Source: Escherichia coli
GTDB lineage: Bacteria > Pseudomonadota > Gammaproteobacteria > Enterobacterales > Enterobacteriaceae
Length of the DNA: 64,000 nucleotides
Strand: one strand, 5' to 3'
NCBI RefSeq assembly: GCF_044324785.1
Contig: NZ_CP172127.1
The notes below the pieces were generated by a model. The model was not told the DNA's origin and did not search any database. It was given only the letters and a program-made list of their open reading frames with translations. Position numbers and translations under genes: made by a program. Shown here in pieces: positions 1 through 1,694 of this stretch; the stretch's first letter is position 1; each line of letters begins with the position of its first letter.

Positions 1-365
1 AGAAGCGTAGGGCGATAGGCAGTATTTTGAGAAAGCTGTGTGAGTGGAAAAGCGTACGGATTCTGGAAGCAGAGTGCTGCGCAGATCATATCCATATGCT
101 TGTGGAAATCCCACCCAAAATGAGCGTATCCGGCTTTATGGGATATCTGAAAGGGAAAAGCAGTCTGATGCTTTACGAGCAGTTTGGGGATTTGAAATTC
201 AAATACAGAAACAGGGAGTTCTGGTGCCGAGGGTACTATGTCGATACGGTGGGTAAGAACACGGCGAAGATACAGGACTACATAAAGCACCAGCTTGAAG
301 AGGATAAAATGGGGGAGCAGTTATCGATTCCATATCCGGGCAGCCCGTTTACGGGCCGTAAGTAA
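1..365 (+). CDS. tnpA: IS200 transposase TnpA (Y1/HUH family), 3' part; N-terminus lies outside the window
   Basis: ORF 27..365 is open to the window edge. Translation closely matches IS200 TnpA as I recall it, with an HUH motif (HIHMLVEIPP) and the tyrosine region (RGYYVDTVG). Confidence 0.85.
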   Translation, partial: KRRAIGSILRKLCEWKSVRILEAECCADHIHMLVEIPPKMSVSGFMGYLKGKSSLMLYEQFGDLKFKYRNREFWCRGYYVDTVGKNTAKIQDYIKHQLEEDKMGEQLSIPYPGSPFTGRK

Positions 366-441
366 CGAAGTTGAATGCAAATGTCAGATCGTATGCGCCT
401 GTTAGGGCGCGGCTGGTAACAGAGCCTTACAGGCGCATTTG
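1..441 (+). mobile_element. IS200 copy, right-hand portion; left end outside window, right boundary approximate
   Basis: Contains the tnpA 3' part and a subterminal inverted repeat around 388..434 (gcgcctgttagggc ... gccttacaggcgc). The exact end was not determined. Confidence 0.55.
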
Positions 442-465
442 AAAAACCTCCGGCTATGCCGGAGG
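442..465. terminator. Stem-loop at the IS200/ybiC junction; probable ybiC terminator
   Basis: Hairpin cctccggctatgccggagg; a TTTTT run follows it on the minus strand, about 10 bp after the ybiC stop. Confidence 0.45.
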
Positions 466-473
466 ATATTTAT

Positions 474-1694
<1,221 letters not shown>

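Follow-up and report, generated by a model that had tools for sequence, protein, structure and literature searches.

The stable hairpin that lies between the transposase gene and hcxB (ybiC) at the start of the 64,000-nucleotide Escherichia coli stretch analyzed here (referred to as the window) is part of an IS200 insertion sequence and not of the host chromosome. We consider it very probable that it is the right-end (RE) hairpin of a 711-bp IS200 copy, recognized by the Y1 transposase TnpA, and that it probably serves as a bidirectional transcription terminator as well. As the RE hairpin has long been known as part of the element, this finding is already known, and the hairpin is an ordinary feature of IS200. 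The window is 100% identical to a locus of E. coli strain N3, here designated L001 (window position = L001 position − 2135), which contains the complete element. The features discussed below are as follows, in window coordinates.

1 to 365, plus strand: 3' part of IS200 tnpA (Y1/HUH transposase), cut by the window start, with the stop codon at 363 to 365; 100% identical to N3 L001.
366 to 474, plus strand: IS200 noncoding right end (RE); conserved in nine E. coli copies and across genera, with flanks diverging beyond it.
392 to 436, plus strand: inner conserved imperfect palindrome, ATGCGCCTGT ... ACAGGCGCAT, which folds as a 10-bp closed structure.
442 to 446, plus strand: A-tract 5' of the hairpin foot, a candidate TnpA guide; GAA(A/G/T)AA is conserved on the 5' side of RE hairpins, and the guide position is assigned by analogy with IS608 (PMC3201880).
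447 to 465, no strand: subterminal RE hairpin, CCTCCGGC-TAT-GCCGGAGG; identified by folding, terminator scan, and conservation, and absent from IS-free strains.
466 to 474, plus strand: RE tail ATATTTATT, positions +1 to +9 of which are conserved; TATT (471 to 474) is the candidate right cleavage site.
474 to 476, minus strand: hcxB stop codon TAA, the third base of which (474) comes from the IS200 terminus; based on the open reading frame (474 to 1559) and on empty-site T counts.
474 to 1559, minus strand: hcxB (ybiC), hydroxycarboxylate dehydrogenase, 361 amino acids, intact; based on the open reading frame and annotation.

Read directly from the sequence, the region consists of AAAAA (442 to 446), CCTCCGGC (447 to 454), TAT (455 to 457), GCCGGAGG (458 to 465), and ATATTTATTT (466 to 475). 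The hairpin has a perfect 8-bp stem, in which seven of the eight pairs are G-C, and a 3-nucleotide (nt) loop; AAAAA on its 5' side and ATATTTATT on its 3' side give it the appearance of a terminator on both strands, the A-tract being a U-tract on a minus-strand transcript. A preliminary description of this DNA had placed a hairpin resembling a bidirectional terminator at positions 442 to 465, on the IS200/ybiC boundary. Such a hairpin does exist there, although the hairpin proper occupies only 447 to 465 and is preceded by the A-run; it is bordered by the 3' part of tnpA on the left and by hcxB on the right, and a consensus terminator scan flagged it on both strands, with the tails ATATTTATTT (plus) and TTTTTCAAAT (minus). 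It thus has the G+C-rich stem-loop followed by a U-tract that defines an intrinsic terminator, with the plus-strand tail ATATTTATTT being interrupted. Folded as RNA, it reaches −15.9 kcal/mol on the plus strand (z = −4.1) and −15.5 kcal/mol on the minus strand (z = −4.4), a stability matched by none of 200 shuffled sequences, and folded as DNA it reaches −10.0 kcal/mol (z = −5.1). Its sequence occurs once in the 64-kb window, for which 0.01 matches are expected by chance. The inner palindrome at 392 to 436 is larger than this hairpin, and the whole stretch from 366 to 480 folds with a z score of −5.9.

The ownership of the hairpin was decided by comparing IS200 copies with the regions downstream of hcxB in strains lacking the element. 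The preliminary description had left the matter between host and element, to be settled in favor of the host if the hairpin were present unchanged downstream of ybiC in strains without IS200, and had proposed this alignment; once carried out, it found the hairpin absent from IS-free strains and assigned it to IS200. When the segment at window positions 366 to 700 was searched against 5,426 complete E. coli genomes, 5,422 matched, and in 5,420 of these the homology begins only at approximately position 469, at the hcxB stop codon; the junction between the RE and hcxB is found in only 2 of the 5,426 genomes. The IS-free locus of K-12 DH1 reads ...GCCCGTCCGCCACTGGACGGGC-TTTTTTTT-AGCTGGC, and that of EcPF20, the closest IS-free relative of N3, is arranged in the same way but with seven T, so that the empty site can be written as GGACGGGC-T8-AGCTGG in K-12 and GGACGGGC-T7-AGCTGG in EcPF20. 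The IS200 hairpin, with its CCTCCGGC stem, is absent from both of these strains. What IS-free strains have instead is a hairpin of their own, GCCCGTCC..GGACGGGC, followed by 7 to 8 T that abut the hcxB stop codon; in N3, this host hairpin is on the other side of the insertion (L001 1871 to 1892).

A reading in which the hairpin is a bidirectional host terminator between ybiC/hcxB and ybiJ, with IS200 ending to its left, would fit its location 8 nt from the hcxB stop codon and its terminator-like tails on both strands. However, a host ybiJ/hcxB terminator should be present at the uninserted locus, and the IS200 hairpin is not: the empty site in K-12 and EcPF20 holds GCCCGTCC..GGACGGGC and a T-run instead. 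Further, wherever IS200 has moved, be it to at least eight other loci or into other genera, the hairpin has moved with it. In all nine E. coli IS200 copies that we compared, located behind ybiJ (in two strains), a lom-like gene, rraB, ahpF, rpoS, rluA, sseA, and a DUF905 gene, the identical hairpin is followed by ATATTTATT, beyond which the flanks diverge, and the hairpin and ATATTTATT are also found in a 110-bp IS200 remnant without tnpA on plasmid p2461-1. The empty-site comparison thus rules out the host-terminator reading, to which we assign a negligible probability. Because the hairpin is absent behind hcxB in IS-free strains and is present in every IS200 copy examined elsewhere, it belongs to IS200.

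An origin as a random palindrome, or as a host repeat of the REP type, with only accidental proximity to IS200, is equally implausible, to the point of being vanishingly so. Palindromes are abundant in E. coli intergenic regions, and a REP-like sequence is indeed present in the ybiJ-ybiE spacer of K-12, but neither the shuffling control (0 of 200) nor the chance expectation of 0.01 in the window is compatible with coincidence, and the distance of the hairpin from an IS200-group left-end hairpin is always 644 to 678 nt. A search of Rfam at an E value of ≤1 returned only three matches, on the basis of which a REP element, another host repeat, and a known RNA family were each rejected: STnc490 at the IS200 left end (146 bits); Ysr202 on the hairpin, partial and far below threshold; and anti-hemB on the host terminator, at chance level. 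The REP-like sequence of K-12 is palindromic, approximately 100 nt long, and missing in N3 (L002 1283 to 1375 versus L001 1760 to 1790).

The element to which the hairpin belongs is complete in N3, where a full-length tnpA of 152 amino acids is annotated. This is an intact Y1_Tnp gene (Pfam PF01797; E = 7.9e-37; 126.5 bits versus a cutoff of 23), and the copy spans L001 1899 to 2609, i.e., 711 bp. The preliminary description had asked where the right end of the element lies; we place it at window position 474, 9 nt after the stem and overlapping the hcxB stop codon by one base, with an uncertainty of 1 nt because target and terminus both end in T. Among 61 independent right flanks, nine positions 3' of the stem are conserved, with the consensus AT-N-TTTATT, whereas position +10 is T in only 39 (64%) and the composition is at background from +12. 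Three contigs (L012, L022, and L082) that represent a collapsed repeat stop exactly at ATATTTATT. At the other extremity, the left end always begins with GT, 12 nt before the left hairpin, in the set of 80 IS200-group loci described below. A terminus at +10, which would give a 712-bp element, was also considered, because T occupies that position in 9 of 10 E. coli copies. This alternative is less likely, since C, G, or A is found there in other species and since the T counts at two independent insertions fit 711 bp.

Those counts come from N3, in which T6, the element, and T1 correspond to T7 in the empty site of EcPF20, and from strain 98210, in which T7, the element, and T1 correspond to T8 in the empty site of K-12. 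At both sites they indicate that there is no target duplication, although homopolymer length is variable and the count may be off by 1 nt. The insertion separates the final two T of the host run, the bases that specify AA in the hcxB stop codon, TAA; this codon is kept intact because the terminal base of IS200 is a T. In E. coli SC418, the IS200 terminus between rraB and yjgM (L006 1022 to 1032) overlaps the TAA of the convergent yjgM by one base, as it does at hcxB.

The same position in the ybiJ/hcxB T-run holds IS200 both in N3 (L001 1899 to 2609) and in 98210 (L004 401 to 1111), and the two copies represent different lineages, with 96.2% identity to each other. Their flanks are 97.4 to 97.8% identical, and other strains have, at other loci, copies that match that of N3 at 100% identity. 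Judging from these identities, the two insertions look like independent and recent events on the same T-run, which would make it a hot spot. Among the 5,426 genomes, only 2 have an IS at this site.

To place the hairpin within the family, we scanned one genome per species with the TnpA protein, which yielded 80 IS200-group loci from Enterobacterales, Vibrio, Desulfovibrio, Sutterella, and many Firmicutes. In approximately 69 of these, the equivalent place, 644 to 678 nt downstream of the left-end hairpin, is occupied by a hairpin with an 8-bp stem and a 3-nt loop. The inner palindrome at 392 to 436 is likewise kept in IS200 copies of Enterobacterales, Vibrio, Desulfovibrio, and Sutterella. For the analysis of covariation, 58 distinct RE sequences were aligned, and their hairpins were chosen to have no more than one stem mismatch, so that the 99.6% pairing of the stem is a product of the selection; the independent evidence for the stem is its fixed position, its rate of recovery, and the compensatory pattern. 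Four of the eight stem pairs vary on both sides, pair 3 occurring as U-A, A-U, C-G, and G-C and pair 6 as G-C, C-G, and A-U. Compensatory cells number 74, compared to 19 ± 3 in shuffled alignments, and the covariation score of 0.456 falls to 0.02 to 0.06 when partners are slid by 1 to 3 columns. G-U pairs occur in only two cells of the alignment, and there is no variation at stem positions C1, C2, C4, and G7 or at the T that opens the loop.

The same pattern is found at the other end of the element. Left-end (LE) hairpins read CCNCNNGN-TAG-NCNNGNGG and always have AAAA on their 5' side, in the same way that GAA(A/G/T)AA is conserved 5' of the RE hairpin. In the present element, the LE hairpin is CCCCCAGC-TAG-GCTGGGGG and the RE hairpin is CCTCCGGC-TAT-GCCGGAGG, and one consensus describes both ends across approximately 75 elements. 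This common pattern points to a single protein that reads both ends, and the invariant bases, the fixed 9-nt distance to the element end, and the avoidance of G-U pairs, none of which would be needed by a plain terminator, suggest that the hairpins are DNA sites read by a protein at both ends. In Enterobacter sp. Bisph1 (L017 1264 to 1300), an LE-like hairpin, CCTCCCCAGTCAGGCTGGGGG, followed by TTTT, lies directly after the IS200 right end and may be a tandem or decayed second copy.

The primary role of the hairpin, which the preliminary description had missed, is that of a family-wide subterminal hairpin of an IS200/IS605-type element. The element has the features by which the IS200 group is recognized, namely, a Y1 transposase, subterminal hairpins in place of terminal inverted repeats, the absence of a target duplication, an oriented insertion 3' of a short target, and a fixed RE spacing of 9 nt (61 flanks). 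By analogy with IS608, we infer that TnpA recognizes the RE hairpin and that cleavage is guided by base pairing. In the proposed mechanism, TnpA would move IS200 as single-stranded DNA, the top strand of which would fold into the RE hairpin; TnpA would bind this hairpin, and the A-tract 5' of the stem would pair with the terminal TATT, thereby directing the cut to window position 474, which is 9 nt past the 3' side of the stem. At the left end, the hairpin that shares this consensus and has AAAA on its 5' side would act beside the host T-N-T-T target. The target consensus is derived from 64 independent left flanks, in which T occupies positions −4 to −1 in 60, 45, 58, and 57 cases, respectively, and the consensus of the right terminus is T-(A/T)-T-T. 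The A-tract guides and the T-N-T-T target would explain why this copy landed in the T-run of the host terminator that is common to ybiJ and hcxB.

A more modest role can be envisaged, in which the hairpin works only at the RNA level, as the terminator of tnpA and as a shield against antisense transcription, and the palindrome at 392 to 436 is the site bound by the transposase. The terminator-like appearance of the hairpin on both strands, the proven terminator activity of its left-end counterpart, and the presence of a second conserved palindrome in the RE all accord with such a division of labor. Nevertheless, we regard it as unlikely, given that particular bases of the stem, together with the base that opens the loop, do not vary between Proteobacteria and Firmicutes and agree with those of the LE hairpin, that the 9-nt distance to the element end is fixed, that G-U pairs are nearly absent, and that the geometry fits the right end of IS608. 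We thus favor recognition of the RE hairpin by TnpA, with termination as a probable additional function.

The IS200 left-end hairpin has been demonstrated to be a bidirectional Rho-independent terminator that stops approximately 85% of incoming transcripts (PMC5435999, PMC4513863). The U-tracts of the RE hairpin, UUUUUCAAAU for a minus-strand transcript and AUAUUUAUU(U) for a plus-strand one, are better than those of the LE hairpin, and its sequence suggests that it is probably an intrinsic terminator in both directions. On the plus strand, it would end tnpA transcripts, although this termination may be weak because the tail AUAUUUAUU is an interrupted U-tract. On the minus strand, it would stop hcxB transcripts 8 nt past the stop codon, at the IS200 right end, and the element would thereby be shielded from antisense read-through.

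Since the copy landed inside the T-run behind hcxB, the hairpin is now located where the hcxB transcript should end. In IS-free strains, the sense strand of hcxB reads TAA-AAAAAA-hairpin-AAACAAGGG, i.e., a hairpin without a U-tract, and the consensus scan flagged this native hairpin as a terminator on the plus strand only. In N3, the sense strand reads TAA-ATAAATAT-CCUCCGGCAUAGCCGGAGG-UUUUUCAAAU, in which 8 nt separate the stop codon from a canonical terminator. The RE hairpin would therefore take the place of the native hairpin lacking a U-tract, which is now 711 bp further from hcxB, and ybiE, a small gene downstream of hcxB on the same strand, would be cut off from hcxB read-through by 711 bp and two strong hairpins. 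The earlier suggestion that the insertion has changed the termination of ybiC thus stands as a sequence-level prediction only, in the form of a canonical terminator gained. The terminator on the ybiJ side is probably unaffected, as its hairpin and six T are kept.

Two further observations concern RNA ends at the RE. The Rfam model Ysr202, a Yersinia small RNA, aligns to the minus strand of the hairpin with its 3' terminator part only (L001 2577 to 2641; window 442 to 506), which suggests that the Yersinia transcript ends at an IS1541 right end; we give this match little weight because its score of 31.5 bits is far below the gathering score of 315, and a literature search on Ysr202 found nothing relevant. 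The remnant on plasmid p2461-1 (L003 1500 to 1609; NZ_CP095535) starts at the position of the tnpA stop codon and abuts the stop codon of a convergent acyltransferase gene; a retained right end of this kind might act as a terminator. The query covering the RE and hcxB (window 366 to 700) also had 222 plasmid matches.

The preference for terminators extends beyond this locus. In 58 of the 64 independent left flanks, from E. coli to Firmicutes, the element is preceded by a G+C-rich hairpin and a T-run, which constitute an intrinsic terminator of the co-oriented upstream gene; the flanks comprised those of L001 and L004 to L011 and of 55 other loci (from L014 to L091), with that of N3 (L001 1871 to 1898) lying just outside the window. 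The target T-N-T-T agrees with the element terminus T-(A/T)-T-T and with the A-tracts 5' of both hairpins. A statistical association of terminators with IS200/IS605 elements has been described in a preprint, where it was read as a means of limiting transposase expression (10.1101/2025.07.22.666184). As a tentative and rather speculative extension, the IS200 group may be both terminator seeking, with AAAA guides that direct insertion after T-W-T-T at the ends of T-tracts, and terminator replacing, with two end hairpins that restore termination for the genes on either side. An A-tract guide that selects the ends of T-tracts would explain the association with terminators mechanistically. If this were true, an insertion would have almost no effect on fitness, even when it falls within a stop codon as at hcxB, and this could help explain the wide persistence of an element that rarely transposes. 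Neither the guide-based explanation nor the restoring role of the RE was found stated in the literature searched, and a search for IS1541 or IS200 together with terminator targeting gave no explicit statement; the idea may well have been published already.

For the locus itself, the analysis fixes the right boundary of this IS200 copy at window position 474, finds hcxB/ybiC intact despite an insertion inside its stop codon, and implies that the hairpin should not be labeled a host terminator in annotation. It further predicts a small regulatory change, in which hcxB gains a canonical terminator and is separated from the downstream ybiE. The details added beyond a correct annotation are few, namely, the stop-codon insertion and the likely exchange of the hcxB terminator. 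The siting of the IS200 group just after terminators is of moderate interest with respect to target choice and harmlessness, and it is not specific to the hairpin studied here.

The closest known systems are IS200 of Salmonella and E. coli (IS200C and relatives) and IS1541 of Yersinia, which, like the present copy, are IS200/IS605 members that carry tnpA only. The copy shares with them a Y1_Tnp transposase of 152 amino acids and the lack of both inverted terminal repeats and a target duplication, and its left-end hairpin, at approximately nt 13 to 31 and matching Rfam STnc490, is placed as in IS200. It measures 711 bp, compared to the 707 bp reported for Salmonella IS200 (PMC4513863). We found no difference of substance, and the copy is a regular member of this group. 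In the literature examined, the left-end hairpin is described as a terminator (PMC5435999, PMC4513863), and nothing specific is said on the right-end hairpin.

A mechanistic model is provided by IS608 (PMC3201880, PMC6006769). Its TnpA binds the top strand at subterminal hairpins, each of which has, 5' of its foot, a guide tetranucleotide that pairs with the cleavage site. Right-end cleavage takes place within the element, 10 nt 3' of the hairpin foot, and the left cleavage site is the flanking target. The present element resembles IS608 in having a hairpin near its end, a candidate guide position of 4 nt directly 5' of the hairpin foot, and a candidate cleavage site within the element (9 nt here versus approximately 10 nt). 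In both, the target tetranucleotide adjoins the left end and is similar to the right terminus. It differs in its perfect 8-bp stem with a 3-nt loop, whereas the IS608 stem is imperfect with an extrahelical T, in its left spacing of 12 nt rather than 19 nt, and in the absence of tnpB. Further, the candidate guide and cleavage sequences here are AAAA with T-W-T-T, whereas the target of IS608 is TTAC and its terminus is TCAA.

Within IS200 itself, the left-end hairpin (nt 12 to 34) and the RE hairpin have in common the consensus CCNCNNGN-TNN-NCNNGNGG and an A-tract on the 5' side, and both lie at an edge of the element, where they are placed to block incoming transcription; terminator activity of approximately 85% has been measured for the LE hairpin, whereas the RE hairpin is known from sequence. 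Finally, group IIC introns are mobile elements that also insert just after intrinsic terminator hairpins. As these introns move by means of a ribozyme with a reverse transcriptase and IS200 by means of an HUH transposase, the likeness between the two is a functional analogy only.
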